Positions 2,971-21,693 of a stretch of 64,000 nt of DNA are shown in pieces. The notes under the pieces were generated by a model. It was given only the letters and a program-made list of their open reading frames with translations. It was not told the origin of the DNA and ran no database searches. The stretch's first letter is position 1, and every line of letters starts with the position of its first letter. The translations under genes and the position numbers were made by a program. The DNA comes from an uncultured Candidatus Saccharibacteria bacterium (GTDB lineage: Bacteria > Patescibacteriota > Minisyncoccia > Phycocordibacterales > SBAW01): contig CAZYUH010000001.1 of NCBI GenBank assembly GCA_964650645.1, positions 79,373-143,372 of the forward strand. Direction: 5' to 3'.

Positions 2971-2989
2971 GCCTTATAGTATATACCCG

Positions 2990-3262: not shown

Positions 3263-3292
3263 TCGGTAAGTATACCTTGCGCCGCGAGGGCT

Positions 3293-3967: not shown

Positions 3968-3981
3968 AATGAAAGTATACC

Positions 3982-5684: not shown

Positions 5685-5685
5685 A

Positions 5686-6960: not shown

Positions 6961-7019
6961 TCTACCCCATGCTGCCGGGAGCTTCCCGGGCGGACTCCGC
7001 TGCGGGGTATACTTGGCCC

Positions 7020-8225: not shown

Positions 8226-8237
8226 AAGGGCCCGGGA

Positions 8238-8654
8238 TTACTCCCGGGCTTTCTCTTGGACCCTCCAGCTGCGCACGCTGGACAGGATGCGCCGGAGCGC
8301 TTCGCACATGCTTTCCTCCTCCGTATCGTTAAACGGGACGCCATGCATGAGCGCGTGGATTTCCTTGAGGTTCGCGGGCACCTGCATGCGGAACCAGTCC
8401 GAGAAATTCCCCGACCTTTTGTAGCGCAGGTACCCGCCTGTCGCTTCCACCAGGCGCGCGTACTCCCACATGGACAGCACGCCGAACTCGTCAGACGCAG
8501 CCGCCCGCCTGAACCGGGCGTATTCTTGGCGCAGTACGTCGAACGCGTCCGCGCGCCACCCGCTCCCGCAATGCAGGCGCGCATGCAGGCCTCCGGCGTA
8601 CGCGGCGGACGCCTGCTCGGGCGGCAACGGCCCCCGTTTCTCGCTTCGCGGCAT
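8238..8654 (-). CDS. hypothetical protein
   Basis: Start chosen at MPRSEKRG preceded by AGGAGGAAGAT RBS; no recognisable domain. Confidence 0.5.
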   Translation of the reverse strand: MPRSEKRGPLPPEQASAAYAGGLHARLHCGSGWRADAFDVLRQEYARFRRAAASDEFGVLSMWEYARLVEATGGYLRYKRSGNFSDWFRMQVPANLKEIHALMHGVPFNDTEEESMCEALRRILSSVRSWRVQEKARE

Positions 8655-8715
8655 ATCTTCCTCCTTGCAATGATCGCTCGCCCAAGAGTAGTCCAAAACA
8701 GGCAAAAAGAAAACG

Positions 8716-8750
8716 GCGCGGCCTTTCGGCCGCGCCGCGCTGTTTTGGAG
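8716..8750. terminator. bidirectional rho-independent terminator (GGCGCGGCC-TTTC-GGCCGCGCC + T tract)
   Basis: GC-rich perfect hairpin with T-runs on both strands, between convergent genes. Confidence 0.5.
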
Positions 8751-8778
8751 GGGCTTTCGTCCCCACCCTTACGCACGG

Positions 8779-9093
8779 CTACTCCGGCATATTACGCTTG
8801 AGCCTGTCGAGCCCCCGATAGATGTTGTCAGTTATATAGTGCGTATCCTCGGGATGGTCTATGGCCCTGCTGACGCCGCGCATGACCCTCTCCAGTCCGT
8901 GGGCGTGCTCGATTGGTCCGTTATCGGCGCTCCTCAGTTTCTTCAGCAAGAGGTTGGCAAGGCCTTTCAAGGCTTCGCGCTGCTGCCCGTTCTCCTCGAA
9001 ATTGCCGAGCAGCCTCTCGGCTAGGTTCTCGAACTTCTCCGAAGCCTCCTCATCGAACGCGCGGCCGCGCGTCCTAACGTCACCCTTAATCAT
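8779..9093 (-). CDS. hypothetical small protein
   Basis: Start at internal MIKGD; upstream TTGACA-like promoter at ~9140-9175 lies inside the longer ORF, arguing for the shorter start. Confidence 0.4.
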   Translation of the reverse strand: MIKGDVRTRGRAFDEEASEKFENLAERLLGNFEENGQQREALKGLANLLLKKLRSADNGPIEHAHGLERVMRGVSRAIDHPEDTHYITDNIYRGLDRLKRNMPE

Positions 9094-9167
9094 CAGATTC
9101 TCCCGTAGCGTGAGCGGTGGCGGAAAAACTATTCCGTTATGTATTACATACCAAGTATATATATTTG

Positions 9168-9198
9168 TCAACAATACAAAGCCGCCCTCGCGGGCGGC
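9168..9198 (-). terminator. rho-independent terminator downstream of DUF1428 gene
   Basis: GCCGCCC-GCGA-GGGCGGC hairpin followed by TTTGTATTGTT on minus strand. Confidence 0.5.
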
Positions 9199-9223
9199 CC
9201 TTTCAGCTATTAGCGGGCGTGCG

Positions 9224-9595
9224 CTACCCTACCACGACCTTGAAGCCGGCGTAGGCCATGCGCTTGGGGTCGTTGGGCATGACGAAGTCCTTCTTCTCGG
9301 CGTAGGCCTTGTCGAAGTGGGCCATCACCTTCTTGTTGACCGCGTTGCGGTGCGCCTTGTTCTTGAACGCGATGTAGGAGAACCAGACCTGCTCGCCCGG
9401 CTTGGGCTTTGCCATCTTCCCGAAAGTGGTCACGACATGCTTGGGCGCCGCGTCGTCAATAACGCACTCCTTGTAGTCGAGCGCGCCGAACTTGAGCCAC
9501 GCCTCCTTCCCCTCGGCCGCCATCTTCTTGTACGCGGCCGCCTTGGCCTTGGGAACGACCAGCACGAACCCGTCTACGTATCCTGCTTTTGTCAT
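9224..9595 (-). CDS. DUF1428 family protein
   Basis: 123 aa; YVDGFVLVVPKAKAAAYKKMA... matches conserved DUF1428 N-terminus. Confidence 0.7.
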   Translation of the reverse strand: MTKAGYVDGFVLVVPKAKAAAYKKMAAEGKEAWLKFGALDYKECVIDDAAPKHVVTTFGKMAKPKPGEQVWFSYIAFKNKAHRNAVNKKVMAHFDKAYAEKKDFVMPNDPKRMAYAGFKVVVG

Positions 9596-9746
9596 ATGTT
9601 TGCGCGTAAATTATAAAAACTCCCGGCCGGACGCGCGAGCCCGAAGCCCGCGTACCGCCAAGTGTACCAGATGCGGGCACGCGCGCTATGGCGCGCAAAA
9701 CAAAAGACCGCCTTACCGCAGATACCCGATAAGGGGTCTTCTGCAG

Positions 9747-10565
9747 TTAGGCGGTTTGGAGCTGCTCGCGCTTGATCGGATACCACTCGAGTTCTGACTT
9801 CCAGAGGGAATACCTCTTTGGCCTTTCGGACACATCGAACCCCTTTCCGTGGGCGCACTGGCCGAACAAGTGGGATCCTTGCAGATCTACCAGCACTTCG
9901 CTGCTGGTTAGGTTTTCATCGGGAATGAGGCCGAGATGCACGTCCCATGGCATGAGGCGGTAATTGCGGGCAAATGCCTCCTCAATGCTTACCAGTTTGT
10001 GCTTATTGCATTCGAAATTTTCTGCAATACGCTCGTCCCACCACTGGAGATGCTTTTCCCACGCTTCACGCTCCCTACGCATTTGCTCTTCCGTATATTC
10101 CTGGTAACACGGGCGGCAATGATCGAGCTCTTCCTCAAGCGTGAGGAATGGGCCGATGAGTTCTTCGAATCTCCTGAATACCGGCAGAGGACACTCGATC
10201 GAGCGCCAACTATCGACATACGGGGTCCCTCCAGGCTGACGCTCATCATCCTTAAGGAAGAGTGCCTTGAAACAGTAATATCCGCGAGAAGCGCCGTGGC
10301 CGCTCCCATTATGGGTCTGCATATCGCAGAAGCGCACATCATGCCAGCCAAATCCTTCTTTTCGGCGGATACGGCTAATGACTTCTCGCGCGCAAAGCAC
10401 CAAGCTTTGCCCGTACTGGGGACTCGTGCTGAACACGCAGATCGGGCCAGGAATATGCGGGCCTCCGTCGTCGAAGATCGCATACTCCAGTTCGACGTCG
10501 TGGCCTGAATGCCCATCGTGATAGGCAAGATGCTTCAGATAAGGAAGTTCTGTTATCTGGTCCAT
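9747..10565 (-). CDS. hypothetical protein (His/Cys-rich), first gene of low-GC island
   Basis: 272 aa; HDGHSGHD, CRPCYQEY motifs; GC clearly lower than flanks. Confidence 0.5.
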   Translation of the reverse strand: MDQITELPYLKHLAYHDGHSGHDVELEYAIFDDGGPHIPGPICVFSTSPQYGQSLVLCAREVISRIRRKEGFGWHDVRFCDMQTHNGSGHGASRGYYCFKALFLKDDERQPGGTPYVDSWRSIECPLPVFRRFEELIGPFLTLEEELDHCRPCYQEYTEEQMRREREAWEKHLQWWDERIAENFECNKHKLVSIEEAFARNYRLMPWDVHLGLIPDENLTSSEVLVDLQGSHLFGQCAHGKGFDVSERPKRYSLWKSELEWYPIKREQLQTA

Positions 10566-10795
10566 CGGACCCTCCTGTTAGTTTGAGTGGATTATGAAAG
10601 AATAGTTCTGTTATAAATTATATACTATTTATATCTATTTGTCAAGTATCGAAAAAACAGGACGTTAAGCACCCGAAACGACGCCCCTGAAGTGCCTCCA
10701 GATCTCGACCATCGCCAGGGTGTCGAGCTTGCAGTACTCGAGCATGCCCTTAGAAATTATCCTCTTGCATCTGCAAGCAGACATTCAAAGCAACA

Positions 10796-13700
10796 TTAAT
10801 CTGAAAGATCTACCAATTTACAAAAAACATTCAGTAACATCATTTCGCTTATAGAGCCCGCCTCTGCGCTGGCTATCCGGGGATCAGCGACCACAACAGC
10901 CAGACACTGAGCTCTAGATATGGCCACATTGACTCGGTTACGATCGAGAATAAAGGCAAGGCCGCGCGAACCGTACTCCCCAAAACTAGAACAGAGCGAG
11001 AGGATGCAAACAGGTGCTTCTTGCCCCTGGAACTTGTCCACACTGCCGACGCGGGCACCGACCGGCAACTCAGCTTGTAGCGCTCGAACCTGCGCATTAT
11101 AGGGAGCAATGAAGAGAAAGTCCTCTAGCGTCAAAGGTCTTACGGTTCCATCGGAAGCCGTGTAAAGACGCCCTACCATCTCTTCATAGACTGCCACCAC
11201 CCTCCTTACCTCTTCATGGCTCTGCTGAATATTTCCATCATGCACAACGCCGCTAAACACAATGCCATGCTCTTTGACCACCAAACTGGCACTGGCCGGT
11301 ACTATAATTCTCTGATTAAGACAGTCGATATAGGAGCCCAAGCGTCCCTCGTAAATGCTTTCCGATATAAACCGGCAGACTGACGGGTGCATACGACGGG
11401 ATTCTCCAAGAAAGAGTCCGTAATCCAAAGGCACAACGGCGTGATAGATAGGCAGGTCTGCTTGGCTGGCTTTTAAATCCTTAAGGGCATATTGCAAGGA
11501 CGAAAGACCCGCATCGCCAGGATGTGTTCCCTGTATGGGTTGCTCAAGCTGCATCTGGTCTCCAAGAAGGACCATGTTTTGTGCGGCTCGGGACATTGCG
11601 ATAGCGTTTGCGAGCGATACTTGCCCAGCCTCATCTATGAAAAGAAAATCCAAAGCGCCCTCCCATTCAGGCAAGGTGAAGAGCCATGCAGTACCGCCGA
11701 CGACTCCGGAAGTGTAAGCTCCGCGAGCATCTTTATTACTTTGGATGTGCTTGAACGCGGGGTTATCCGAAAATAACGCGCCCTCATCATCTCCCCCAAC
11801 CTTTATTCCATTAAAGACTTCTCCCTGCTCCCTGACGGCCTCGCCGCAAGCGACAAGCAGATTTACAACGGCTTTGTGGCTATTTGAAGCGACACCGACT
11901 TTCTTCCCGGCCGCAAGCAGAGCTTTTATGACACGCGCTGCCGTATAAGTCTTGCCTGTACCGGGAGGCCCCTGAACAACAAGGCAGCCACCAGCCATCG
12001 AGCCCGTTACCCTGATGCCCGCATCGACAGTGACCTCTCCGGACTGTTGCAGAACAAGTGCAGGAGATATCCGCTGCAATAAGGAAACAACGGGAAGATG
12101 CAGGCCTTCTGAAAGATGCCGTACGGCCACTTCTGTCAGCGCTTTTTGTATTGAAGTCGCAGGCACGTACTCATAAGGAATCAGCGAACCGCGCTGAGGA
12201 AAGGCGCCATCGAACTTCTCATCCAAAGCCCTGTTCCCAATCTTAAGCTGGAGGGTACCCTCAGCCATATCCAAGCCCACCAAGGTTAGCTTTCCTTCAA
12301 TATTGTGCGTAAACATTACGGAAGTCTTGCCATCTCCAGCAAGCTTGCATTCCTGAGACGGGTCGAATTTGTATGTTTGTACCAGTGATTGCTTTTCGGC
12401 AACTGGCGATCCTACGGCCTGGACCCCCTGCATGCATCCGGAATCATCGCGCAGCTCTTCAGCAGTCGCCTCGACGCGATCGAACATGCGCCACCACACA
12501 GGCTTCTCTTCCCGTCGGTGAAAATCAATCAGGTCAGCAAGCGTTACGGACAGATAATCGCTCCGCTTGCGTAAATTAACAACCGCCTCCTGTCGCGCGA
12601 TAACTTCCGGCGGCACTTCCTTTGGAGTCTCTGAAGAGGAGCCGGTTGCCATTGAGGGCCGAGACACCGCGATATTATGTTCGCTTGCAATCCTTCTTAG
12701 CCATTGCAGCAGCTCAACAGTGGACTTGCAGTCGTCTTCATTGTAGTCGCGGATGCTCTTGAGGAGCGGGCTTTCCTGCCAATTATGTGGCTGCCTACTT
12801 TCCATCCAGTTTGCATACTGCACTATGGAATCGACCGCAGTACCAACCTCAGTTGTACGATGCGGCCTGTAGAGATGCTCGACCGACTTGATAGAGTAGC
12901 TATCCTCGCCGATGCGCAATCCGTGCCGAACAATCTTGTACAGGTCCACAAAGACCCCGGCGCGGAGCAAGGCATCAACTTCGTCCTGCCTGGTGTCATG
13001 ACGGGTACTCAAGCGGCTTACCGCGCTCTCTTCGTAAGCGGCGTAGTGGTAGATATGCATGCCGGGGTTTTCCCTCCAGCGCTTATGCACCCAGTCTATA
13101 AAACCCTCAAACGCGGATTTTTCCTCTTCACGGCTGTGCGCCCACCAGTCGACAAAATTTAGTTCTCCAGACGGGTCACGGAAAGAGACCCCGAAAAGAT
13201 ACTCTAGTCCGCCAGGAACAAGCGGGTACCCTTCCATATCGAAAAAGACATCTGCCTGATGATCAGGCGGGAGCGCAGCAAGTCCCACAGGCACCCCGTT
13301 CTCTCCGACCTGAGACAGCAGCTCATATCGTGCCGGCGCACTAGCGTTGCCTAACCGATCATCGCGCGTCTGACACTGCAAGCGAGCTTGCCCCACTAGC
13401 TTTTTCATCGAGTCTTCCGCAAGCCTGGGAACGGACTTGCCCGATGCCGCAGCAAGTCCTGCCATCGTTGTAATGCCCGCCCCTTTTAGCTTTTTTATCT
13501 GACCAACTGTTATATTGGCCACCCTCGCGAGAGAGTCCGTATCATCGAAAAATTGATTTGCGTGCGACCCCCAGCAACCATGTCCGGCGCCAAGCACAGG
13601 TTCCGGCCTATCAACCATATTTCCAGTAAAGCCGTCCTGGAGAGCAAGGAAGCTTTTCTTTAGTCGCCGGTAGTAGTGGATGAAGTCCTCGACGCGAAAC

Positions 13701-14215
13701 TCCACACGGTCCTTGTTGCCAAGTATCACGCCAAACTTTTCCGGCATTGGTTCGCCAGTCGCCGCAGCAAGCATCTCTGAGTAGCAACAGAGTTGGATGA
13801 TGTAGTAAGGCTTCGGGGAACGGGCGAGCTTAGTGTCCCATATCTGGTAATGCCCCGATTCGTCGAGTATAAGAAAGTCAGCAAAACCCGCAAATTGCCC
13901 CTCATTCAAGGCGGCTTGATAGATGATGGGGGCTTTTGCTTTGATAGCCGCGATAGTAGCTTCTCGGGCAGCAGCTACGTCCTTTTTAGAAATCTCTACC
14001 AAGCCGGGCTCAGCCGCCTTAAACTCCTCAAGTATCATGCGCTCATGCTCATCCCCCGTGCGAGCAATAAGCTTTTGGTCTTCAGATTCCTCATCAGGCG
14101 ATACTGCTTTTGGGTTTTCCAAATAATAGCGATCCATCCAAGAGGCAAAGGATGATTTGACATAGCAAACCAAATCGCTTGGAGAATATACGAGTTTTCC
14201 GGATATTTTTTTCAT
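10796..14215 (-). CDS. RecB-family (TM0106/Cas4-like PD-(D/E)xK) nuclease fused to Upf1/DNA2-like SF1 helicase; Nhi-like defence nuclease-helicase
   Basis: 1139 aa from MKKISGK; N-term GFADFLILDE...IWDTKLAR...QLCCYSEML (motifs II, III, QxxxY); C-term VVQGPPGTGKT Walker A, FLFIDEAGQVS Walker B, VLLGDQMQL, VDKFQGQE. Confidence 0.8.
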   Translation of the reverse strand: MKKISGKLVYSPSDLVCYVKSSFASWMDRYYLENPKAVSPDEESEDQKLIARTGDEHERMILEEFKAAEPGLVEISKKDVAAAREATIAAIKAKAPIIYQAALNEGQFAGFADFLILDESGHYQIWDTKLARSPKPYYIIQLCCYSEMLAAATGEPMPEKFGVILGNKDRVEFRVEDFIHYYRRLKKSFLALQDGFTGNMVDRPEPVLGAGHGCWGSHANQFFDDTDSLARVANITVGQIKKLKGAGITTMAGLAAASGKSVPRLAEDSMKKLVGQARLQCQTRDDRLGNASAPARYELLSQVGENGVPVGLAALPPDHQADVFFDMEGYPLVPGGLEYLFGVSFRDPSGELNFVDWWAHSREEEKSAFEGFIDWVHKRWRENPGMHIYHYAAYEESAVSRLSTRHDTRQDEVDALLRAGVFVDLYKIVRHGLRIGEDSYSIKSVEHLYRPHRTTEVGTAVDSIVQYANWMESRQPHNWQESPLLKSIRDYNEDDCKSTVELLQWLRRIASEHNIAVSRPSMATGSSSETPKEVPPEVIARQEAVVNLRKRSDYLSVTLADLIDFHRREEKPVWWRMFDRVEATAEELRDDSGCMQGVQAVGSPVAEKQSLVQTYKFDPSQECKLAGDGKTSVMFTHNIEGKLTLVGLDMAEGTLQLKIGNRALDEKFDGAFPQRGSLIPYEYVPATSIQKALTEVAVRHLSEGLHLPVVSLLQRISPALVLQQSGEVTVDAGIRVTGSMAGGCLVVQGPPGTGKTYTAARVIKALLAAGKKVGVASNSHKAVVNLLVACGEAVREQGEVFNGIKVGGDDEGALFSDNPAFKHIQSNKDARGAYTSGVVGGTAWLFTLPEWEGALDFLFIDEAGQVSLANAIAMSRAAQNMVLLGDQMQLEQPIQGTHPGDAGLSSLQYALKDLKASQADLPIYHAVVPLDYGLFLGESRRMHPSVCRFISESIYEGRLGSYIDCLNQRIIVPASASLVVKEHGIVFSGVVHDGNIQQSHEEVRRVVAVYEEMVGRLYTASDGTVRPLTLEDFLFIAPYNAQVRALQAELPVGARVGSVDKFQGQEAPVCILSLCSSFGEYGSRGLAFILDRNRVNVAISRAQCLAVVVADPRIASAEAGSISEMMLLNVFCKLVDLSD

Positions 14216-14321
14216 ACCACCCCTGGGGCCATACGTAGTGCAAACAGTAGCGCCTAAGAGCCGCCAGGGCAATACACAAATCATGGACTACATAGTTAAT
14301 TGCGCAATTAGGCCGGCAGCC

Positions 14322-14615
14322 CTACCAACCCACGCTTGTTACCAATCCGATCGAGCCTAGTATGCCCGCAACGCGCTCGCAATCCGCTCTTATGCCGCGA
14401 TATACGACCGCGCTGCCGCTGGTGTGGACGATATTCGCCAGCTGCGCCGCAGCCGCGGCCGAACATCCCGTCGCCTTAATCAATTGGCCTATTACGTCGT
14501 CAAAGGTGTGGCACTCGCAATTAAAAAGGGTCGTCTTCCACCCGGCGACAGTTGCGCCAAAATCAAGCTCAATCTTAATGATATTTTCGACTTTAGGTTC
14601 CATTGTTACAACCAC
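14322..14615 (-). CDS. ClpS-like (N-end rule adaptor fold) protein with substituted degron-pocket residues
   Basis: Aligns with E. coli ClpS core (VILVNDDYTPMEFVIDVL...AVHYQGKAICGVF) as TTLFNCECHTFDDVIGQL...IVHTSGSAVVYRG; NDD replaced by NCE. Confidence 0.5.
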   Translation of the reverse strand: MVVTMEPKVENIIKIELDFGATVAGWKTTLFNCECHTFDDVIGQLIKATGCSAAAAAQLANIVHTSGSAVVYRGIRADCERVAGILGSIGLVTSVGW

Positions 14616-14627
14616 GTAGTTAAACAG

Positions 14628-15050
14628 CTATTTGCCCTTCAGCGCAATCGCGATCCGCTCGACGGACCTAACCGGCTTTTTCTTTACGTCGTGCTCCCAT
14701 ATCCTTACGACCTTCCAGCCGAGCTTTTTGAGCTTGGCGTTATTCCTGCGGTCGCGGCGCATATTCTCCTTGATTTTCGGGAGCCAGTATTTCTTTGGCA
14801 GCCTCTTGCCCTGGTTCTTGAACTTATACCCGTGCCAGAAGGCCCCGTCCATGAACACGGCAACCTTCTTGGACACGAACACGATATCCGGCCTCCCGGG
14901 GAGCTTGCGGTAATGGATCCTGTAGCGGTAGCCCTTCTTGTAGAGCGCGGCGCTCACCAGCTTCCGCAGGGCGATCTCGGGCTTGATATTCTTGGAGCGT
15001 ATGAGCGACATGATCTCGCTCCGCCTCTCCTTGGAAAAGATGTCGGCCAT
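14628..15050 (-). CDS. vsr: very short patch repair endonuclease Vsr
   Basis: MADIFSKERRSEIMSLIRSKN...VFMDGAFWHGY canonical Vsr motifs. Confidence 0.85.
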   Translation of the reverse strand: MADIFSKERRSEIMSLIRSKNIKPEIALRKLVSAALYKKGYRYRIHYRKLPGRPDIVFVSKKVAVFMDGAFWHGYKFKNQGKRLPKKYWLPKIKENMRRDRRNNAKLKKLGWKVVRIWEHDVKKKPVRSVERIAIALKGK

Positions 15051-15093
15051 CTCAAGCAAGCATACCCCGCCGGCCACACAAATGCCGCCAAAT

Positions 15094-15300
15094 CTATCTA
15101 AACAGGTCCCTGGTCGAAACTCCTAAAGATATTGCCAATTTCTCAATAGTTTGAAGAGTAATGTTTTTCTTACCGCACTCAATCCTGCTTACATAAGCCT
15201 TGTCTGCACCTAGAAGTTTCGCTAGGTCTTCTTGGGACAATCCCTTCTTAATTCTCAACTGCTTAATTGTGTACCCAAAACGGGAAAAAATGGTCTGCAT
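15094..15300 (-). CDS. XRE-family HTH regulator (R-M controller C-protein-like)
   Basis: 68 aa; LRIKKGLSQEDLAKLLGADKAYVSRIECGKKNITLQTIEKLAISLGV HTH_3. Confidence 0.8.
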   Translation of the reverse strand: MQTIFSRFGYTIKQLRIKKGLSQEDLAKLLGADKAYVSRIECGKKNITLQTIEKLAISLGVSTRDLFR

Positions 15301-15426
15301 CCTTATTCACACCATAAACCCTTTTTATTTGATAGCAAGTTGTATCATAATACAACTATAGCAAATTGGAGGCTTTTCGGAAGATTATTTTGCTTGATAG
15401 GCTGAGAAAGATATAATTTACACTCT

Positions 15427-16494
15427 ATGGCTTCTCTTAAAAATAAGAAACCAACAATCATAAGCCTCTTTGCAGGGGCTGGCGGACTAGATATCGGCAT
15501 GAAGCAAGCCGGATATCACGTTGCTGTTGCGCTAGATTTTGACCACGATAGCTGCGAAACCTTAAAGACCAATTTCAAGGACTCTGCAGTTATCGAAGGC
15601 GATATTACACAAGTATCGACTGAGCAAATCCTTGAAGCTGGAGGTTTAAAGGTCGGCGAAGTGGATCTTTTAATCGGAGGACCTCCATGCCAACCATTCT
15701 CAAAATCCGCATTTTGGAATGGTTCAAAGGGTTTAAAAGACCCCAGGGCCGTAACCCTTCATGAGTATGTTCGAGTCTTACGGGATACAAAGCCTAAGGC
15801 TTTTCTTTTGGAGAATGTGTTTGGTCTTCTATACAAAAACAACAGCGACGCATTTTCTTTTTTGCAGGACGAATTCGGAAAGCTGGGGTACGAAATTGTT
15901 TACAAGGTAGTTAATACTGCGGACTACGGAGTACCGCAAACCCGCCAACGCTTGATCATACTCGGATCCAGGAAAGGCAGACTAGCATTCCCTGAGCAGA
16001 CCCACCGCGACCCTTTGAAGGAAGAGGGGCTGACATTATTCGAGAAAAAATTACCGACCTACATTACAGCAAAAGAAGCATTTAAGGGATTGAGACACGA
16101 CTGGAAGGAAGTGCCGGCAGAATTAACTGTAAATGGAAAGTGGGGCCATTTATTGAAAGATATTCCACCCGGAGATAACTATCTTTTCTATACTGAGAAG
16201 AAGGGGCATCCAAATCCCCTATTCGAATGGCGCTCTCGCTATTGGACCTTCCTTCTGAAGTTAGATCCAAAAAGACCATCTTGGACCATCCAGGCTCAAC
16301 CGGGGCCTTACGTCGGGCCATTTCACTGGGACAATCGGAGAATGACTCTTGCGGAACGGAAAAGGATACAAACTTTCCCCGATAACTACATATTTGTTGG
16401 CAAGAGAGGTTCTGTGCAGAAGCAAATCGGCAATGCTGTCCCTTCAGAACTAGGGCGAGTTTTAGGCAAGGCGATTAAGGATCAATTATTTTAA
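15427..16494 (+). CDS. dcm: DNA (cytosine-5)-methyltransferase
   Basis: 355 aa; motif I FAGAGGLDIGM, motif IV GGPPCQPFS, motif VI ENVFGL. Confidence 0.9.
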   Translation: MASLKNKKPTIISLFAGAGGLDIGMKQAGYHVAVALDFDHDSCETLKTNFKDSAVIEGDITQVSTEQILEAGGLKVGEVDLLIGGPPCQPFSKSAFWNGSKGLKDPRAVTLHEYVRVLRDTKPKAFLLENVFGLLYKNNSDAFSFLQDEFGKLGYEIVYKVVNTADYGVPQTRQRLIILGSRKGRLAFPEQTHRDPLKEEGLTLFEKKLPTYITAKEAFKGLRHDWKEVPAELTVNGKWGHLLKDIPPGDNYLFYTEKKGHPNPLFEWRSRYWTFLLKLDPKRPSWTIQAQPGPYVGPFHWDNRRMTLAERKRIQTFPDNYIFVGKRGSVQKQIGNAVPSELGRVLGKAIKDQLF

Positions 16495-17157
16495 AGCTTT
16501 CTCACCTCGGCGAGGTATTCTTGCCCAGTGGTCATAAAATTCTTGCCGCGATTTGAATTCGCCACGCTCTTCGCGAATGCGGTCTATCTCCATTACCGCA
16601 CCAACGTAGTCTCGTGTAGCGCTAGAAGCCGTATGCGATGCGACTTTCCACGGCTCAACAACAAGAAGCTCAAAATTGCTTACCTTATTGGCTGCCGCAT
16701 CAACATCAAAAATGGCTATCAAATCTATATGATGCGTATAGTCGGCAAAGGGGCGAATAGTCTGTGGGAATTTCTTATCCTGATGCTTTAAGTAGGTCCC
16801 GAAGGAGTACAGGGTTATTCGAGACTGAGTACGGTTGGGATTACGACCACGTCTTGCCGCCTTAATATCGAGGGCGACCAACGCGTTCTTAAAATGCTCC
16901 CCCGTCAACTCCAAGTCCGGATAGTGGCGCATGCCACCTTCCGTTACGGACACGCTCTTCAGCTTATCCGTCTTACGCTTGAGATGAGCAATAAGGGCCC
17001 CTTCGATAATATTACCTAGTGTTCCAGGTTCAAGATCCAGGGGAATAATTTCTCCCGTACTAGTGGCAAAACCGATAATATCGAATACGAAGTCCGAGTA
17101 CATTTCACGCACCCACGCCTTCATTTCGTTCACATTGGCTTTTTTGAGACTTGCCAT
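16486..17157 (-). CDS. putative type II restriction endonuclease (PD-(D/E)xK), cognate of adjacent C5-MTase
   Basis: 223 aa; YPDLEL...ALDIK fits PD-x(n)-(D/E)xK; tail-to-tail 9-bp overlap with dcm; low GC. Confidence 0.5.
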   Translation of the reverse strand: MASLKKANVNEMKAWVREMYSDFVFDIIGFATSTGEIIPLDLEPGTLGNIIEGALIAHLKRKTDKLKSVSVTEGGMRHYPDLELTGEHFKNALVALDIKAARRGRNPNRTQSRITLYSFGTYLKHQDKKFPQTIRPFADYTHHIDLIAIFDVDAAANKVSNFELLVVEPWKVASHTASSATRDYVGAVMEIDRIREERGEFKSRQEFYDHWARIPRRGEKALK

Positions 17158-17343
17158 AATGCTATCCTACACCGGTATCTTATTTATTGACAGAGCTTAG
17201 ATTTTATACCACTATCTCAAAATTACACAGGTTATTACGTAATCGGAAATAAAAAAGCTGCCTCATAGCGCCCACAAGAGCCTCATGTTTATTAGGATTA
17301 TTGGCTGCAGATCCCTTTTGCAAAAGTAATTAAATATTAAAGC

Positions 17344-18900
17344 TTACGAAAAACTCAAACCAAACATATCCTGAAGCAGTTTCTCAACTATTGCCTTATA
17401 GTCTTCTACTTGCTGGTCGGTTACGTTTGGAGTTGCCCTGACATGATTTAAATCACATCTCAACTTGTAGTAATATTCTATTTTTTTTAATGTATTGGCA
17501 TCAATAGGTAGAGTCTTAATAACTTCTTTTTGCAAGTCGGATCTATTTTCAATTATTGCCTTAAACTTTGCCGCCCCCAATCCTTGCTCGTTTATTAAGT
17601 ACTCTTTATAAGCAATGTCGACGGTACTATCCAATACAATAAGGGCAATTCTATTCTTTTGACTAAAAGGGAACTTCGATATGAGGTCAGCGGCGATGAC
17701 ACTTTCCAGCAGCCCTGCACTCCAGGGCTTCTCGGCAACTATCAACTCATTCGCGCCGATGACTTTTTGATGCCATTTTTGCTTACTTGCCGGCGCTTTT
17801 GGTAAGTAGTTCTTTGGAATGCTAGTAATAGTGTCTAGCTTTTCTTCCAAAACCACGCCAGTTTTATAAGGAAAAACTTGAGTATCCCATTTACCCTGAA
17901 GACTCCTGGATACTTGAGCAAATTTTTTAGTCGCATCAATGACACTCTGTTGCAGAGCCTGGAAGATGGGATGCTTGGTATTAATGCCTGACTTACTACT
18001 GTCCCAAGGCATGTCGCGCGACTGCCCCTTTATTCTTACTATAGTACGCACCAGGGAAATATTGTAATGAGGATTGCCAACCATGCCCGCAGAAAAACCG
18101 ACCGAAAAGTCATTCAACCCTCGTGCAATCAACCTATTGTTACAGTATACAAATACCCCATAAGACTTATCCGGGTCGCCCGGATGGTCAATTAAACCTG
18201 CCAATATCTCAACGTCAACCTCTCTGCCCTCTATCGGTATCACTCCGGAGAACTTTGTAGGGAAAAGGCCGGGCGGATAAGACCATTGGTCATCAAAGTT
18301 TACGGCTTCTATTTTATCTCCATTGATTGTAATCATGGCGCCCCTGTCTAAAAATTTTGAATACACTTCCGATAGATGGACTTTTAAATTAGAAATCCCC
18401 TCCGGGGTCAGATGGACACGAAGCTTACTTAGTTCAATTAAGGTAGTGTACGGGCTGAGAGTGTTATGTGATTCCGCATAAGGGAGCTGCCAGCTTGGAT
18501 CATCTGTAATCCAGTGTTCGTCAAATTTCACTGTATAAGACTTTGCATTTTCATATCTAGAATGAATAGCGATATCCTGCGCTAAAGCAACAACCGCACG
18601 CTTACTGCCCACTCCAAAGTATCCAATTACACCATCACCAACATCGTTTGTTGTTTTGCCCGGACTAACAACATGGTCGAGTTTAGATTCTTCTATTCCT
18701 CCCGCATTGTCTTCTATTGATATAGTCTGCTGGTTTTCATCAATGGATATCTTTATCTCTAAATCAGCGCGCTTATTTTTTGACCAAAGATCAATAGCGT
18801 TATCGATAAGTTCGCATATTGCACGCTTCAAATCGTATTCTGAAATTATGGAAAGGAATATTCTTTTTTCAGGCGTAGCATCTAATATTTTCGGGTGCAT
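17344..18900 (-). CDS. MORC/MutL-like GHKL ATPase (HATPase_c_3) of unknown function
   Basis: 518 aa from MHPKIL; Bergerat N-box ELIDNAIDL, G1 box DNAGGI, G2 GYFGVGSK; remainder has no recognisable domain. Confidence 0.7.
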   Translation of the reverse strand: MHPKILDATPEKRIFLSIISEYDLKRAICELIDNAIDLWSKNKRADLEIKISIDENQQTISIEDNAGGIEESKLDHVVSPGKTTNDVGDGVIGYFGVGSKRAVVALAQDIAIHSRYENAKSYTVKFDEHWITDDPSWQLPYAESHNTLSPYTTLIELSKLRVHLTPEGISNLKVHLSEVYSKFLDRGAMITINGDKIEAVNFDDQWSYPPGLFPTKFSGVIPIEGREVDVEILAGLIDHPGDPDKSYGVFVYCNNRLIARGLNDFSVGFSAGMVGNPHYNISLVRTIVRIKGQSRDMPWDSSKSGINTKHPIFQALQQSVIDATKKFAQVSRSLQGKWDTQVFPYKTGVVLEEKLDTITSIPKNYLPKAPASKQKWHQKVIGANELIVAEKPWSAGLLESVIAADLISKFPFSQKNRIALIVLDSTVDIAYKEYLINEQGLGAAKFKAIIENRSDLQKEVIKTLPIDANTLKKIEYYYKLRCDLNHVRATPNVTDQQVEDYKAIVEKLLQDMFGLSFS

Positions 18901-18972
18901 ATATAAAACAAATCTTACGCACAAAGAATACGCCTTTTAAGGCTCTTTACAAGGCCTCAACAAAGCGACCCA

Positions 18973-19167
18973 TCATTTCCCCTTCCAGTCGCGGATTATG
19001 AGCTTTTTGTTCTTCAGGTCCACTTGCACGGTAAGCTTCTGCTTCTCCTTCCAGCCGAACTCCTTAATAGCCTCCATGGGGAGGCTTATCGAATAGCTCC
19101 TGCCCGCCACCTTGGTGATCTTGCGAACCGGCTTCGCGCTCAAACTCGCCTTGGGTCGTCCTGCCAT
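18973..19167 (-). CDS. AbrB/MazE/SpoVT-family DNA-binding protein
   Basis: 64 aa; SISLPMEAIKEFGW swapped-hairpin barrel signature. Confidence 0.55.
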   Translation of the reverse strand: MAGRPKASLSAKPVRKITKVAGRSYSISLPMEAIKEFGWKEKQKLTVQVDLKNKKLIIRDWKGK

Positions 19168-19277
19168 ACCGGCATTTTACACCCAGAATCGCGCAGCTAA
19201 TTGCGCAATTACCATCCCTTTCCTTCTTCTCCTCCCAGCCTCGCCCCTCTCCTCGCTTTCCCCGCCTCACCCCTCCC

Positions 19278-19307
19278 AATCTATTCTAGTGTTTTGCAAA
19301 ATTCCAG
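19278..19307. repeat. direct repeat copy 1 (GTGTTTTGCAAAATTCCAGAATAGATTT) containing inverted arms AATCTATTCT/AGAATAGATT
   Basis: Seen directly; identical 27-28 nt copy at 19580-19607. Confidence 0.8.
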
Positions 19308-19565
19308 AATAGATTTGCCGCGAGGCGTTATCTTATGCCGGACGCTGTTGCCATCGCTGCGCTTAAGGACCAACCCGGCAATGGCGAGCTTGCGGATATG
19401 GTCCGAGGCGTTGATATAGCCGATACGGAGCCGCTCGGACACCTCGGCAACCGAAAGCTCGGGACTGCGCTGCAATACGTCCAATATCTGCAGCCGGCGG
19501 TGGCTGGCCGCCCCTTTTATAACCCTCTCGATCTTCCTAAAATTCGCCTGCGCCATGGCCGGCAC
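19281..19565 (-). CDS. ArsR/MarR-like winged-HTH regulator
   Basis: 94 aa; RLQILDVLQRSPELSVAEVSERLRIGYINASDHIRKLAIAGLV. Confidence 0.65.
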   Translation of the reverse strand: MPAMAQANFRKIERVIKGAASHRRLQILDVLQRSPELSVAEVSERLRIGYINASDHIRKLAIAGLVLKRSDGNSVRHKITPRGKSILEFCKTLE

Positions 19566-19579
19566 TATACACCATGCTG

Positions 19580-19607
19580 GTGTTTTGCAAAATTCCAGAA
19601 TAGATTT
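19580..19607. repeat. direct repeat copy 2, in the promoter region of the ArsR-like gene
   Basis: Identical to 19280-19307. Confidence 0.8.
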
Positions 19608-19796
19608 TCTCCTTGGATGAATTGAGCCGCATACCTGCGTAGCTAATTGCTAATTAGCTACATACTATTGACACTTTTCGCTATACAGAGTAATTTGCTC
19701 TCCAGCAGTTCCCCTCTCCGTTGTGCGTTAGCAAACACCACCCGGCGCCCCGGTTACGGGGTATTGCTAAGCAATCCATCACAAATGGAGCGGGTT

Positions 19797-20210
19797 ATGG
19801 AAAACGTTAAAATTATCGCATCTGGCCTGCCTGACAGCACTGTTATCGGAGGCATTGAAAACAACAGCGGCAAAACCGAGGTTGAGAAAAATTACAGAGG
19901 GGTCAATGCAAGGAACCTCCCTGAGCTTTTCTCAAAAATCGGAGAGATTGAGGGTTACTTCGAAGCTCTGGCTACGCTCTGGTGCGATGGCGAGCTAACT
20001 CTTGTCATTGAGAAGGGTTCTCACTTTTTCTCGGGAGTCCTGACAACCTATGAGGATAATCTCATCGAGAGGACGGTCAAGATAATTGATCGTCTTGCAG
20101 TCGAATTGTCCCAAGCGAAATATGATGCTGATAGTTACAAAATAACCTACAAATTCTCGCGCGCGGTAGAGTTTAATGACTTGGTAAACGATATCATTCC
20201 CCGACACTAA
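19797..20210 (+). CDS. hypothetical protein
   Basis: Start at ATG 19797 preceded by GGAG 6 nt upstream; no recognisable domain; low GC. Confidence 0.4.
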   Translation: MENVKIIASGLPDSTVIGGIENNSGKTEVEKNYRGVNARNLPELFSKIGEIEGYFEALATLWCDGELTLVIEKGSHFFSGVLTTYEDNLIERTVKIIDRLAVELSQAKYDADSYKITYKFSRAVEFNDLVNDIIPRH

Positions 20211-20220
20211 ATTCTGCGCA

Positions 20221-20252
20221 AAACTCCCCGACCGGATACGGTCGGGGTTCTT
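20221..20252. terminator. bidirectional rho-independent terminator (CCCCGACCG-GATAC-GGTCGGGG + TTCTTTTTT)
   Basis: Perfect hairpin between convergent genes at right edge of low-GC island. Confidence 0.6.
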
Positions 20253-20254
20253 TT

Positions 20255-20854
20255 TTATCGAGATCCGCTGCACGCGCCTGAAGCCCAGAGGCCGCGGCCC
20301 AGCAATCGGGCCTGCGCCTCTGCGGCCCTGAACTCCGCCTGGTACTTATAGGGCGCGCTGTAGGTGTACTCGTGCGCGTAGCCCTGCTCTACCAGGTATT
20401 CGTTTACCGGCAGGCCGTCGCTGCGGTACACGTACGCGAGCAAGCGGCCGTATTTGTCGCGCTCGCCTTGCGAGGGGTCCTTTTCAAGCATTACGCGCTG
20501 GCCCGCCAGAAGCTCTTTCGTCTTGTCGGAGGCCTCCTTGCCGAAGCACTGCACCGCCTTGCGCGGGTCAACCGTCTCGGGCGTGTCGATGCCTATGAAC
20601 CGGACGGTTTCCGTTTTGCCTTCAATGCTTACGGAAACAGTATCGCCGTCCACTACCCTTATGACGGCGTACGTGCCGCTAGCGGCGGGCGGTATTGTTG
20701 ACGCTTGAGTGCTCGTCGCAACAGGCGTCTGCGGCTGCTCGTGCGGAGCCGCAGGAGCGGGAGCGTCGGGCGAAAAGAACCCCGCAAGCGCGAGCAGCAT
20801 AAAAATGCTCATCACTGCAACTGCAGTCCATCGCGCTCGTTTGCCCATGCACAC
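20255..20854 (-). CDS. secreted thermonuclease (staphylococcal nuclease homologue)
   Basis: Signal/TM then VIRVVDGDT...IGIDTPE...DKYGRLLAYVY SNase motifs. Confidence 0.85.
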   Translation of the reverse strand: MCMGKRARWTAVAVMSIFMLLALAGFFSPDAPAPAAPHEQPQTPVATSTQASTIPPAASGTYAVIRVVDGDTVSVSIEGKTETVRFIGIDTPETVDPRKAVQCFGKEASDKTKELLAGQRVMLEKDPSQGERDKYGRLLAYVYRSDGLPVNEYLVEQGYAHEYTYSAPYKYQAEFRAAEAQARLLGRGLWASGACSGSR

Positions 20855-20931: not shown

Positions 20932-21693
20932 CTAGAAGTCATCCAGGGCCGATTCGGAATCGGGCTGCAAAACGGCGCCTTTCACATGCCCCTTGAAGGC
21001 CTCCATTACGTAGCCCGGGCAATTGGCGCGGACATTCCTATCAACAAAGACGCGCTTCGCATCGCTTCGCGCAAGGAGCACCTCCACGAATCGCACGCTG
21101 CCCGGATTGTCCGGCCCGGCCCGGTTACCATCCCTCTCAATCCATAAATGATAGAACCGCAGAGATCCTATCTCCCTGCCCTCGGAGAGTGCGATAGCCT
21201 CGGCGGCGCGCGGGCAATTCAGTATGAAGGAGCGGCTTGCGCCGTGCGCCAGAGTGATGACGCAGCGGTTGCCGTGGAAGATAGCATACGCCACGTAGAC
21301 ACCGGCACCATCATCCGACTCATAGCTTCTGACCTTTAATTCCGCCGGTATGTAGTCCTTTTCCCTCGGGAGGCCGCTCCGAGCGGAACGAGGCTCCTCC
21401 TTCTTGGGCCACCGTCCGTTTCCGGTAAGCTTTTGGAACCACTCCCAATGATCCGGAAGCGGTTCGCCCGTCTTCGGGTCGATGATTACCATTCTTGGCG
21501 TGCGCGCTCCTGATACAGGGAATGCATCGGCAGGCGTCCCGCTTTTCGTTTCTTCTTCAGGCTCGCCGGACATAGCCATACACCCTGCAAGAACCGCAGG
21601 CTCGCTGTCCGCGCCGATAGCCGCAGCCTCTGCCGTTCCTACCGCAGACTGCTTTTGCTTCTTTGTACGCGTTAAGAGCTTTTTAATACCCAA
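20932..21693 (-). CDS. hypothetical protein
   Basis: 253 aa ORF, coding-like codon usage, no recognised domain. Confidence 0.5.
   Translation of the reverse strand: MGIKKLLTRTKKQKQSAVGTAEAAAIGADSEPAVLAGCMAMSGEPEEETKSGTPADAFPVSGARTPRMVIIDPKTGEPLPDHWEWFQKLTGNGRWPKKEEPRSARSGLPREKDYIPAELKVRSYESDDGAGVYVAYAIFHGNRCVITLAHGASRSFILNCPRAAEAIALSEGREIGSLRFYHLWIERDGNRAGPDNPGSVRFVEVLLARSDAKRVFVDRNVRANCPGYVMEAFKGHVKGAVLQPDSESALDDF

Follow-up and report, generated by a model that had tools for sequence, protein, structure and literature searches.

Between a DUF1428 gene and a thermonuclease gene, the window (the whole 64 kb stretch of DNA that we analysed) carries a low-GC block in which restriction-modification (R-M) genes lie beside a GHKL ATPase, a ClpS-like protein and a nuclease-helicase. 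Does this block encode one combined defence system, or do independent genes lie together in it? We consider that the island is very probably the current cargo of a variable chromosomal slot, a mosaic in which at least five modules, each acquired separately, lie side by side and do not form one machine. It consists mostly of already-described defence genes that are independently mobile and is, in this respect, an ordinary mosaic defence island.

Boundaries and composition of the island

The island, its flanks and its edge features are as follows.

9670..20265, unstranded: island with no counterpart in close relatives except a 62-bp relic; GC 0.488 (blastn of L087, GC statistics)
9224..9595, - strand: DUF1428 gene, left flank, conserved core gene (Pfam PF07237, 5.8e-26)
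20255..20812, - strand: SNase, secreted staphylococcal-type nuclease, right flank (PF00565, 2e-26)
20226..20247, + strand: strong terminator hairpin at the right edge (9-bp stem, 8 G-C pairs, T-run)
10690..10751, unstranded: relic of 62 bp, the 3' end of a DUF2779 nuclease gene, 98% identical to L087 9836-9897

The 10.6 kb low-GC block is a horizontally acquired, foreign insert without counterpart in close relatives. Blastn against the close relative L087 aligned L087 1-7567 with window 27828-20266 at 98% identity and L087 9928-19606 with window 9669-1 at 97.3% identity, and the breakpoints are 9669/9670 on the left and 20265/20266 on the right. The initial annotation had placed the island at 9600-20260, which lies within about 70 bp of the left breakpoint and 5 bp of the right one. 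The synteny comparison that it proposed showed the block to be missing in close relatives, with defined junctions, and not to be core synteny.

The GC content is 48.8% in window 9670-20265 versus 61.8% for the rest of the window. In 500-bp windows, the mean GC was 0.487 inside 9670-20265 (n=20) versus 0.618 outside (n=106; Mann-Whitney p=6e-10), which confirms the sharp drop claimed between the DUF1428 and thermonuclease genes, and the lowest-GC 10.6 kb stretch within the full 64 kb starts at 9701. The dip is tiered and not uniform, with GC of 0.50-0.55 at 9750-15000, 0.37-0.47 at 15000-19000, about 0.55 at 19000-19500 and 0.47 at 19500-20250. Gene by gene, GC3 in the island is 0.62, 0.54, 0.62, 0.86, 0.45, 0.45, 0.49, 0.40, 0.77, 0.70 and 0.52, a range of 0.40-0.86 versus 0.82-0.90 in the flanking host genes. 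This tiered composition implies that the island genes have different origins.

Domain searches found no integrase or transposase domain among the island genes, and the closest tRNA lies at position 44204 of the window, so the edges are free of integrase, transposase and tRNA genes, as previously stated. The terminator had been described as bidirectional. The hairpin with its + strand T-run was found, and bidirectionality holds only in part because the - strand tail has just 4 T.

States of the slot in related genomes

The slot is hypervariable and core-flanked, with different genes in each relative. The DUF1428 gene adjoins it in L087-L094 and L082. In close relatives such as L087, where the flanks are 97-98% identical, the cargo amounts to two genes, one of 67 aa and one for a DUF2779 nuclease, and the counterpart of the relic (L087 9836-9897) lies inside the L087 DUF2779 ORF at 8267-9919. 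A third state, in L082, holds genes for a PF1765-like protein, DUF2726, a MazG-like protein, an SLFN-type helicase with S24 peptidase and a ClpS-like protein as well as a 64-aa gene, and a fourth, in L180, holds a GDSL lipase gene, a homologue of the 272-aa gene described below and a 77-aa gene.

The right junction lies inside the SNase gene. Homology to the L087 SNase gene stops at window 20266, the protein has 185 aa here versus 277 aa in relatives including L087, and the truncated gene takes its new stop codon from the terminator T-run. Entry would have taken place without an integrase, likely by recombination via the conserved flanks together with illegitimate joins. The same events would have deleted the resident DUF2779 nuclease gene, of which 62 bp are left, and shortened the thermonuclease gene at its 3' end.

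The restriction-modification genes

The domain calls of the initial annotation were all confirmed by Pfam, NCBIfam and PADLOC searches. Those of the R-M region are listed here.

14628..15050, - strand: Vsr very-short-patch repair endonuclease (TIGR00632, 131.6 bits, cut-off 97.85; Pfam Vsr 7e-24)
15094..15300, - strand: XRE-type HTH control (C) protein, 68 aa (HTH_3 5e-16; PADLOC Control_protein 4.5e-18)
15338..15357, unstranded: inverted repeat AGTTGTAT-N4-ATACAACT between the C gene and dcm, candidate C-box operator (repeat search)
15427..16494, + strand: Dcm-type C5-cytosine DNA methyltransferase (PF00145 5e-65; PADLOC MTase_II)
16486..17157, - strand: EcoRV-family type II restriction endonuclease (PF09233 2e-14)

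In the sequence comparisons, the convergent pair of dcm and the nuclease gene, which overlap by 9 nt, is the only conserved unit of the island. The Dcm translation contains the FAGAGG, PPCQPFS, ENV and QTRQR motifs, and the nuclease, with a P-D...D-I-K motif, matches EcoRV in the PDB (1.6e-8 across residues 23-217). The closest copy of the pair, in L183, has 80% nucleotide identity, confined to window 15427-17171, and its Dcm is 92% identical at the amino acid level. In L183, a GmrSD gene occupies the position of the GHKL gene, and a C gene of 50% identity lies at the place equivalent to that of the C gene here, which is divergent from dcm. In L185, the pair has HTH+ImmA and Fic partners and adjoins a serine recombinase and a primase. 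Vsr is absent from both copies of the pair.

The methylase would mark host DNA, and the nuclease would cut unmarked incoming DNA. The C protein probably regulates the pair by binding the inverted repeat that lies in the region of the divergent promoters. Vsr would nick T:G mismatches arising from 5-methylcytosine deamination and would therefore limit the mutational cost of the methylase. On the one hand, the arrangement resembles C-controlled type II R-M systems that come with a Vsr gene, for which Dcm/Vsr of E. coli is the paradigm, in its m5C methylase, PD-(D/E)xK nuclease, small HTH C protein and promoter-region inverted repeat and in the location of the Vsr gene near dcm. On the other hand, the C gene here precedes vsr and not the nuclease gene, and Vsr is missing in the other copies of the pair and differs in codon composition. 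The GC3 of vsr (0.86) corresponds to host-like codon usage, versus 0.45 for its neighbours, including the low-GC C gene.

The GHKL-HEPN gene

17344..18900, - strand: MORC-like GHKL ATPase with C-terminal HEPN RNase-type domain (HATPase_c_3; fold similarity; motifs)

We regard this solo gene as the most interesting part of the island. In fold, the GHKL and S5 module came closest to MORC2, MORC3 and SMCHD1. The HEPN domain, which had been missed in the initial annotation, can be matched to the RiboL-PSP type (PF18735) by way of a homologue, and the ATP-binding and Rx4H motifs are invariant in the family. The protein is most likely an ATP-gated RNase, and its activation on infection may lead to growth arrest of the abortive-infection type.

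The combination of a Dcm/Vsr R-M unit with a GHKL ATPase and with a pair of ClpS-like and nuclease-helicase genes had been thought undescribed. However, Iyer, Abhiman and Aravind reported in 2008 that MORC/paraMORC GHKL ATPases occur together with cytosine methylases (Dcm) and Vsr (PMC2292703), and Anantharaman et al. reported paraMORC-HEPN fusions in R-M neighbourhoods in 2013 (PMC3710099). The gene here shares with these systems the MORC-like GHKL and S5 module, a C-terminal HEPN domain with Rx4H and a location close to the genes for Dcm, Vsr and the type II nuclease. It differs in HEPN type, which is RiboL-PSP here and Ymh in the 2013 paper, and, unlike the systems of 2008, its family is not embedded in R-M operons. 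Dcm or Vsr was found within 10 kb of the gene at 0 of 79 loci in other genomes of bacteria and archaea, and any DNA methylase within two genes at about 10% of loci at most. A minority of the family does lie beside R-M genes (BglII in 3, N6_Mtase in 2, N6_N4_Mtase in 3), and the known defence genes among the neighbours include Septu PtuA/PtuB in 4 and ATPase-Toprim in 5. No neighbour is conserved: of 123 adjacent genes, at most 5 share any one Pfam family. As ORF calling in the neighbourhood censuses was crude and Pfam is poor at recognising restriction nucleases, the R-M association of the family may be underestimated. At 53 of 57 loci, the GC of the gene is lower than that of its flanks.

Two other kinds of system offer comparisons. 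VcSduA, a variant of Shedu, has its GHKL ATPase at the N-terminus and has been validated as an anti-phage gene that acts on its own (PMC12137116), and like the protein here it joins a GHKL ATPase, a clamp-like middle domain and a nuclease-type effector in a single polypeptide. Its effector is a DUF4263 PD-(D/E)xK DNase, whereas that of the protein here is the RNase-type HEPN domain, and the protein here had no sequence match to the Shedu models in PADLOC. The anticodon nucleases PrrC and RloC likewise fuse an NTPase to a C-terminal HEPN RNase beside an R-M system, but their ATPases are of the ABC type, and the PrrC gene lies within a type I hsd operon.

The nuclease-helicase

10796..14215, - strand: TM0106-family protein, 1139 aa, with PD-(D/E)xK nuclease, RNase H-like exonuclease and SF1 (Upf1/Dna2-type) helicase (TIGR03491, 193 bits, cut-off 97.45)

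By its family match, this protein is a full-length member of the already named, functionally unpublished TM0106 family; a literature search for 'TM0106' returned no relevant paper. Further domain matches are RNase_H_2, AAA_11, AAA_12 and AAA_30, and the translation shows D-T-K, QxxxY, GPPGTGKT and DEAGQ motifs. Full-length homologues with 38-41% identity and the same PGAP name occur in 108 plasmid records, in variable and partly defence-rich contexts, for example beside BREX brxL. As a single-gene module, the nuclease-helicase probably unwinds and degrades foreign nucleic acid and may thus serve in defence. It is similar to Mokosh MkoA/MkoC, in which a COG1112-type helicase and a nuclease are likewise found in one large protein in variable defence-rich regions, but the PADLOC Mokosh matches are limited to the C-terminal helicase part and the PLD nuclease is lacking here.

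The small genes

9747..10565, - strand: 272-aa protein of a rare lineage-restricted family (no family match)
10617..10645, - strand: sigma-70 promoter upstream of the 272-aa gene, TTGACA-17-TATAAT (12/12, consensus match only)
14322..14603, - strand: divergent ClpS-like protein, 93 aa (Pfam ClpS 1.4e-10; alignment; PDB profile matches)
18973..19167, - strand: SpoVT/AbrB (MazE-like) protein, 64 aa (PF04014 2.9e-7)
19281..19556, - strand: winged-helix regulator of ArsR/MarR type, 91 aa (HTH_27 4e-8, HTH_5 3e-5)
19785..20210, + strand: 141-aa protein (gene call taken from the JGI contig)

These five genes are lineage-specific and not shown to be defensive. It had been claimed that every gene of the island is defence- or regulator-like, which was not confirmed for the ClpS-like, 272-aa and 141-aa genes, as these carry no evidence of defence. 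The ClpS-like protein has an N-C-[ED]-C-H-T-F motif in place of the N-degron-binding N-D-D, and a copy with 65% identity lies in the same slot of L082. Its supposed pairing with the nuclease-helicase was not supported, since a TM0106-type helicase was found at 0 of 80 loci of the ClpS-like family, where the neighbours are metabolic (aldo/keto reductases, O-methyltransferases and similar). The 272-aa gene lies on a separate segment of about 1 kb (9670-10689) that is missing in L087. The 141-aa protein had zero matches in Pfam, NCBIfam and PADLOC. AbrB-like genes occur near the GHKL gene, never adjacent to it, at only 1 of 79 GHKL loci.

Assembly of the island

The modules of the mosaic would be five: the R-M pair, Vsr, the solo GHKL-HEPN gene, the solo TM0106 nuclease-helicase and the lineage-specific small genes. 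We give hardly any credence to a new composite defence that unites the Dcm/Vsr/nuclease genes, the GHKL ATPase, the ClpS-like protein and the nuclease-helicase, although the genes adjoin one another in a 10.6 kb stretch and most of them share a strand. Whether the GHKL gene (79 loci), the ClpS-like gene (80 loci) or the R-M pair (2 contexts) is taken as the starting point, pairwise linkage is not conserved, the compositional tiers point to different origins, and the plasmid TM0106 homologues have unrelated neighbours. In one further genome (L057, Reyranella), a GHKL-HEPN gene and a TM0106 homologue are arranged back to back, and this adjacency could be more than coincidence. All of the parts named in the initial annotation are present, but their reading as a single undescribed combined system is not supported, and an integrated multi-gene system is largely refuted by the neighbourhood data. 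A coupling limited to this locus is also unlikely, namely that the GHKL-HEPN protein is tied to the adjacent R-M pair as PrrC is to EcoprrI, staying latent while the restriction enzyme is intact and cleaving tRNA or mRNA when a phage disables restriction. Such a guard would suit a gene that is followed on its own strand, after 186 nt, by the nuclease gene, the few family members beside R-M genes, the reported company of MORC/paraMORC ATPases with Dcm and Vsr, and the same role proposed for paraMORC-HEPN fusions (PMC3710099). However, Dcm and Vsr are lacking within 10 kb of all 79 members, no methylase is recognisable at a distance of up to two genes in about 90% of them, the closest copy of the R-M pair adjoins GmrSD and not GHKL, and GC3 is 0.40 for the GHKL gene versus 0.45-0.49 for the pair.

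It seems highly improbable that the island is what remains of an integrative element or prophage after loss of the integrase and the ends. Low GC, sharp junctions, a truncated flanking gene and the recombinase and primase beside the L185 relative of the R-M pair agree with such an origin. However, the searches found no recombinase, transposase, phage structural gene, tRNA or terminal repeat, and in four relatives this slot is filled with unrelated cargo and contains no integrase. Moreover, the GHKL family was found on only 2 of 2.9 million viral contigs and the nuclease on none.

A mosaic cargo of a variable slot has parallels in the core-flanked defence hotspots and islands of P. aeruginosa (PMC10250203) and E. 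coli (PMC10121019), which also occupy a fixed chromosomal slot between core genes and hold mostly defence-type cargo that varies by strain, with lower GC and often no integrase of their own. Here, by contrast, the host belongs to an uncultured lineage known from metagenomes only, no more than four slot alleles were seen, and the ClpS-like and 272-aa cargo looks lineage-specific and not defensive.

Genomic setting of the island

The low-GC cargo between the DUF1428 gene and the thermonuclease (SNase) gene, at window 9670-20265, is a defence island of mosaic composition that sits in a hotspot between core genes, and it is built from already catalogued families. Its most interesting component is a solo gene encoding a MORC-like GHKL-HEPN protein. 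As the initial annotation had observed, the GC content falls sharply at this block: the sliding profile dropped from 0.62-0.72 in the flanks to 0.37-0.56 at about 9.7-20.3 kb, and the lowest-GC 10.6 kb stretch of the full 64 kb starts at 9701. In 500-bp windows, the mean GC was 0.487 inside the island (n=20) versus 0.618 elsewhere in the 64 kb (n=106; Mann-Whitney p=6e-10), and the GC of the whole island was 0.488. When followed gene by gene, the dip is tiered, not flat, and GC3 is 0.40-0.62 in most island genes versus 0.82-0.90 in the host genes, which is the composition of an acquired island. The domain calls of the initial annotation were all confirmed by Pfam, NCBIfam, and PADLOC, while the 272-aa and 141-aa proteins had no match in these three collections. 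Look-ups of window proteins by exact sequence brought up the same organism only.

Genes of the island, with window position, strand, assignment, evidence, and GC3

9747-10565, 272-aa protein; GC3 0.62
10796-14215, minus strand, TM0106 family RecB-like nuclease (nuclease-helicase); TIGR03491 193.2 bits (cut-off 97.45, residues 36-529), RNase_H_2, AAA_11/AAA_12/AAA_30; GC3 0.54
14322-14603, minus strand, ClpS-like protein; PF02617 41.2 bits (gathering score 23); GC3 0.62
14628-15050, minus strand, Vsr; TIGR00632 131.6 bits (cut-off 97.85); GC3 0.86
15094-15300, minus strand, HTH control (C) protein; PADLOC Control_protein 4.5e-18; GC3 0.45
15427-16494, plus strand, C5 methylase (Dcm); PF00145 5e-65, PPCQ, ENV, and QxRxR motifs; GC3 0.45
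16486-17157, minus strand, EcoRV-family restriction nuclease; PF09233 2e-14, P-D...D-I-K in the translation; GC3 0.49
17344-18900, minus strand, HATPase_c_3 GHKL ATPase; Pfam; GC3 0.40
18973-19167, minus strand, MazE/AbrB-like protein; Pfam; GC3 0.77
19281-19556, minus strand, ArsR/MarR-type winged-helix regulator; Pfam; GC3 0.70
141-aa gene; GC3 0.52
Neighbouring host genes; GC3 0.82-0.90

The comparison with related genomes that the initial annotation had recommended defined the junctions at the base-pair level. The contigs of the close relatives L087-L094, which were reached via the 90% cluster of the DUF1428 protein, have flanks 97-98% identical to those of the window and lack the block, carrying different cargo in its place. 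By blastn, L087 1-7567 corresponds to window 27828-20266 (98% identity) and L087 9928-19606 to window 9669-1 (97.3% identity), and between these sharp junctions L087 holds just two genes, one for a 67-aa protein and one for a DUF2779 nuclease of 550 aa. A 62-bp remnant of the 3' end of the DUF2779 gene (L087 9836-9897) is retained at window 10690-10751, directly downstream of the nuclease-helicase stop codon, indicating that replacement turned an L087-like state into that of the window. The right junction cuts into the thermonuclease gene, which encodes 277 aa in L087 versus 185 aa in the window, and the new stop codon of the truncated gene falls within the T-run of a hairpin at 20226-20247 (9-bp stem, 8 G-C pairs), the top terminator-like site of the region. 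The 272-aa gene occupies its own segment of about 1 kb (9670-10689), in place of 30 bp of L087.

Two further relatives fill the same slot differently. In L082, a more distant one (66-89% amino acid identity in core genes), the same core genes surround PF1765-like, DUF2726, and MazG-like genes, a Schlafen-type helicase with S24 peptidase, a ClpS-like gene with 65% identity to its window counterpart, and a 64-aa gene. The syntenic region of L180 contains a GDSL lipase, a homologue of the 272-aa protein (37% identical), and a 77-aa gene. The window, the L087 type, L082, and L180 represent four distinct states of one slot, with a recombinase inside none of them, and this fits the published picture of core-flanked defence hotspots (e.g., PMC10250203). 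The initial annotation was also correct that the edges bear no integrase, transposase, or tRNA: no Pfam domain of an integrase, recombinase, or transposase was found in the island, the nearest tRNA is at 44204 (ARAGORN), and no flanking direct repeats were visible in the junction sequences on inspection by eye, so that the features of an integrase- or tRNA-targeted genomic island are missing. The Rfam matches were tRNAs only. We consider that the island was probably built by successive hotspot recombination events, one of which would have removed the DUF2779 gene along with the 3' end of the SNase gene. The locus is a defence hotspot cleanly delimited at base-pair resolution in an uncultured lineage, with four slot alleles.

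The close relative L087 shares the high-GC stretch at window 3250-9200 (FAD-binding oxidoreductase, glycosidase, PGI, ROK, and others), which the syntenic region of L082 lacks, indicating that in this lineage the variable region reaches past the low-GC island. GC is low again (0.41-0.54) in a second patch at window 39500-43500, which adjoins tRNA-Gln (44204-44275) and may be another acquired segment; its content (prephenate dehydratase, LD-carboxypeptidase, GDSL lipase, and small unknown genes) is not defence-like. At L082 4340-8350, the slot contains, besides the DUF2726 and MazG-like genes, a gene for a 668-aa protein in which a Schlafen-type helicase is joined to an S24 (LexA-like) peptidase, and the ClpS-like gene overlaps the end of the helicase gene by 11 nt; the gene for this fusion may be an uncharacterised defence gene in its own right.

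Restriction-modification pair, C protein, and Vsr

The C5 methylase, with its catalytic motifs, adjoins the PD-(D/E)xK nuclease, and the two form a type II R-M pair. Over almost its entire length, the nuclease aligns with EcoRV structures (1.6e-8); its homologues come mostly from Patescibacteria-type MAGs, and neither the plasmid nor the viral collections contain a relative. The convergent pair is kept as a unit in two other genomes, L183 (92-93% amino acid identity) and L185 (67%). In L183, the nuclease is 93% and the methylase 92% identical, the DNA is 80% identical to window 15427-17171 with no identity beyond, the C protein is 50% identical, Vsr is absent, and a GmrSD type IV enzyme takes the position of the GHKL gene. 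In L185, HTH and ImmA genes and Fic flank the pair. From these contexts, the conserved unit is just the convergent methylase/nuclease pair. The methylase would protect host DNA, and the nuclease would cut unmethylated DNA.

In the E. coli Dcm/Vsr paradigm, Vsr repairs T:G mismatches resulting from 5mC deamination, and the Vsr of the window may act likewise. Its TIGR00632 score is above the cut-off and its gene lies 377 nt from dcm, as expected of a Vsr. It is not an integral part of the R-M pair: considering its host-like GC3 (0.86 versus 0.45) and its absence from the other two copies of the pair, Vsr has an origin separate from that of the pair. The C gene (GC3 0.45) is 43 nt upstream of the Vsr gene, in the same apparent operon. 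The C/dcm intergenic region contains an 8-N4-8 inverted repeat (15338-15357), a candidate operator, but it is vsr and not the nuclease gene that follows the C gene; the divergent promoter is the probable site of action of the C protein.

In 53 kb of sequence, palindrome counts pointed to no clear candidate recognition site for the R-M pair. Outside the island (1-9669 and 20266-64000), GATC was strongly under-represented (79 observed versus 158 expected, z -6.3), as was CTAG (33 versus 76), and GCWGC was mildly low, in a sample too small to tie these deficits to the pair. The near-identical pair of L183 with its GmrSD type IV restriction gene lies at 1553-5379 (GCA_964368005.1), and the position upstream of the nuclease gene seems to take in varying defence genes. 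Two 64-aa genes, one lying upstream of GmrSD in L183 and the other adjoining the ClpS-like gene in L082, were compared with the AbrB-like gene of the window, and neither corresponds to it.

Nuclease-helicase, ClpS-like protein, and small genes

Full-length homologues of the TM0106 nuclease-helicase (38-41% identity) were found on 108 plasmid records, all bearing the PGAP name 'TM0106 family RecB-like putative nuclease'. Their plasmid neighbours are unrelated to one another, comprising BREX brxL, SMEK, and TrlF in Vibrio, a DEAD-box helicase and Fic in Piscirickettsia, and IS elements in Legionella. PADLOC matches to Mokosh were confined to the helicase C-terminal region (residues 860-1146). 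Mokosh consists of the MkoA helicase plus the MkoB PLD nuclease, or of the fused MkoC, whereas the TM0106 protein contains no PLD domain and is not a Mokosh protein. A literature search for TM0106 found no relevant paper. The protein may act as a helicase-driven nuclease on foreign nucleic acid. The DUF2779 nuclease of L087 was tried as a homologue of its N-terminus and was rejected (just E=0.15).

The ClpS-like protein belongs with ClpS by its family match and by profile matches to structures of ClpS and UBR. Its profile places it nearer to Plasmodium ClpS and to the N-domains of eukaryotic UBR1/UBR2 than to bacterial (E. coli) ClpS, and its scores against the NCBIfam ClpS equivalogs are far under the cut-offs. 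At the position of the N-degron-binding N-D-D of ClpS, its subfamily has an invariant N-C-[ED]-C-H-T-F (N-C-[ED]-C-H in 29/29 members). Neither the N-D-D pocket nor the clpA linkage of a ClpS N-degron adaptor was found. The subfamily also conserves C47, H60, and C75, and to judge from the alignment the conserved Cys/His residues could be a metal site.

The initial annotation had paired the ClpS-like protein with the nuclease-helicase, and this pairing is not conserved. Of 80 ClpS-like loci from a metagenome scan, none had a helicase homologue. A neighbour census anchored on tblastn positions showed aldo/keto reductases (12), O-methyltransferases (11), metallo-beta-lactamase-fold proteins (10), response regulators (9), and CoA transferases (8). 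The families listed for 141 neighbours included no Clp ATPase. Based on the four slot states, in which L082 holds a ClpS-like gene and L180 a homologue of the 272-aa gene, these two genes look like lineage-restricted residents of the variable region. Both have a GC of about 0.54 in the window, like the lower-GC relatives L082 and L180, and this composition suggests that they were exchanged within the clade.

A model of the 272-aa protein had no convincing fold relative in the PDB. Its N-terminal part showed a weak similarity to a conserved 253-aa protein outside the island (20932-21693; BLASTP E=0.026, 21% over 131 residues), and the two may share a domain.

GHKL-HEPN protein

The 518-aa protein encoded at 17344-18900 is a MORC-like GHKL-S5-HEPN fusion, of which the initial annotation had seen the ATPase and not the HEPN part. 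It has the GHKL ATP-binding motifs and S5-type second domain of MORC/paraMORC proteins, followed by the all-alpha fold and conserved Rx4-6H motif of the HEPN superfamily. In an alignment of 12 diverse members, the GHKL motifs were invariant, as was R481-x4-H486 near the C-terminus. The assignment follows from these motifs together with the C-terminus of a homologue, which exceeds the gathering score of PF18735 (HEPN_RiboL-PSP). The family has at least 939 homologues at E <= 1e-5 in bacteria and archaea, and the best 120 of these are mostly of about 518 aa.

In 2008, MORC and paraMORC1-5 ATPases were assigned to R-M operons that 'frequently contained' cytosine methylases and Vsr endonucleases (PMC2292703). 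A 2013 study described paraMORC ATPases of R-M neighbourhoods that carry a HEPN domain fused to the C-terminus, and proposed these HEPN domains to be functional analogues of PrrC/RloC (PMC3710099). Accordingly, the combination of GHKL with Dcm/Vsr, part of what the initial annotation took to be new, is an already described association. We surveyed the neighbourhoods of 79 loci, from a scan of one genome per species, and neither phmmer nor tblastn detected Dcm or Vsr within 10 kb of any of them. Clustering of the neighbours gave no conserved partner. In the Pfam census of 123 adjacent genes, no family occurred in more than 5 (SMC_N/AAA_23 in 5, BglII in 3, N6_Mtase, SIR2_2, and integrase in 2 each); the next genes out added N6_N4_Mtase (3) and ResIII (3), and a methylase lay within two genes at no more than about 8 of the 79 loci. 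The setting expected of MORC/paraMORC ATPases, an R-M operon with methylases, nucleases, or SF2 helicases, applies to the gene in the window only, not across the family. Known defence neighbours in the PADLOC census were Septu PtuA/PtuB in 4 and ATPase-Toprim in 5. The GC of the gene was lower than that of its flanks in 53/57 loci, by a mean of 8.7 points, and only two viral contigs carried the family. These contexts are those of a solo gene that moves horizontally and lands in defence-rich spots, not of a fixed R-M subunit. Since the family is mostly not R-M linked, it qualifies the published view of paraMORC-HEPN ATPases as R-M components.

These surveys also bear on the proposal of the initial annotation that the genes of the island form a single new system. 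It is not supported, considering that Dcm/Vsr are missing from the GHKL loci, Vsr from L183 and L185, and the helicase from the ClpS-like loci. That genes are adjacent within an island of this kind does not argue for a composite system.

On the one hand, the GHKL-HEPN protein resembles VcSduA, a validated single-gene system of GHKL plus nuclease (PMC12137116), but Shedu of the VcSduA type has a DUF4263 PD-(D/E)xK nuclease domain, which the window protein lacks (no PADLOC or Pfam match), its C-terminal domain being HEPN. On the other hand, the PrrC/RloC anticodon nucleases fuse HEPN to an ABC-type NTPase and are kept latent in complex with an R-M enzyme, whereas the ATPase here is GHKL. In the PADLOC run suggested earlier, the R-M parts were matched (Control_protein) but PADLOC v2 had no match for GHKL-HEPN, and a literature search for GHKL, HEPN, and anti-phage found no relevant paper. 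An ATP-driven dimeric clamp may gate the HEPN RNase and lead to an abortive-infection type response. We tentatively propose, at somewhat less than even chances, that the family is a self-contained single-gene ATP-gated RNase defence system, in which the MORC-type clamp senses an infection cue and frees the HEPN RNase, and which current catalogues miss, to judge from PADLOC v2. If so, GHKL-HEPN would be the RNA-targeting counterpart of the GHKL-Shedu protein VcSduA, sharing its GHKL-plus-HEPN logic with eukaryotic sacsin. Judged by their intact catalytic motifs and wide horizontal spread, the GHKL-HEPN and TM0106 proteins are two large single-gene candidates that are uncharacterised experimentally.

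In a Reyranella sp. MAG (L057, 6405-11569), homologues of the GHKL-HEPN protein (38% identity) and of the TM0106 nuclease-helicase (33% identity) are encoded back to back, with a DUF4238 gene adjoining. Among the 79 GHKL loci, a TM0106 homologue occurs at this one alone, and the window shows the same combination.
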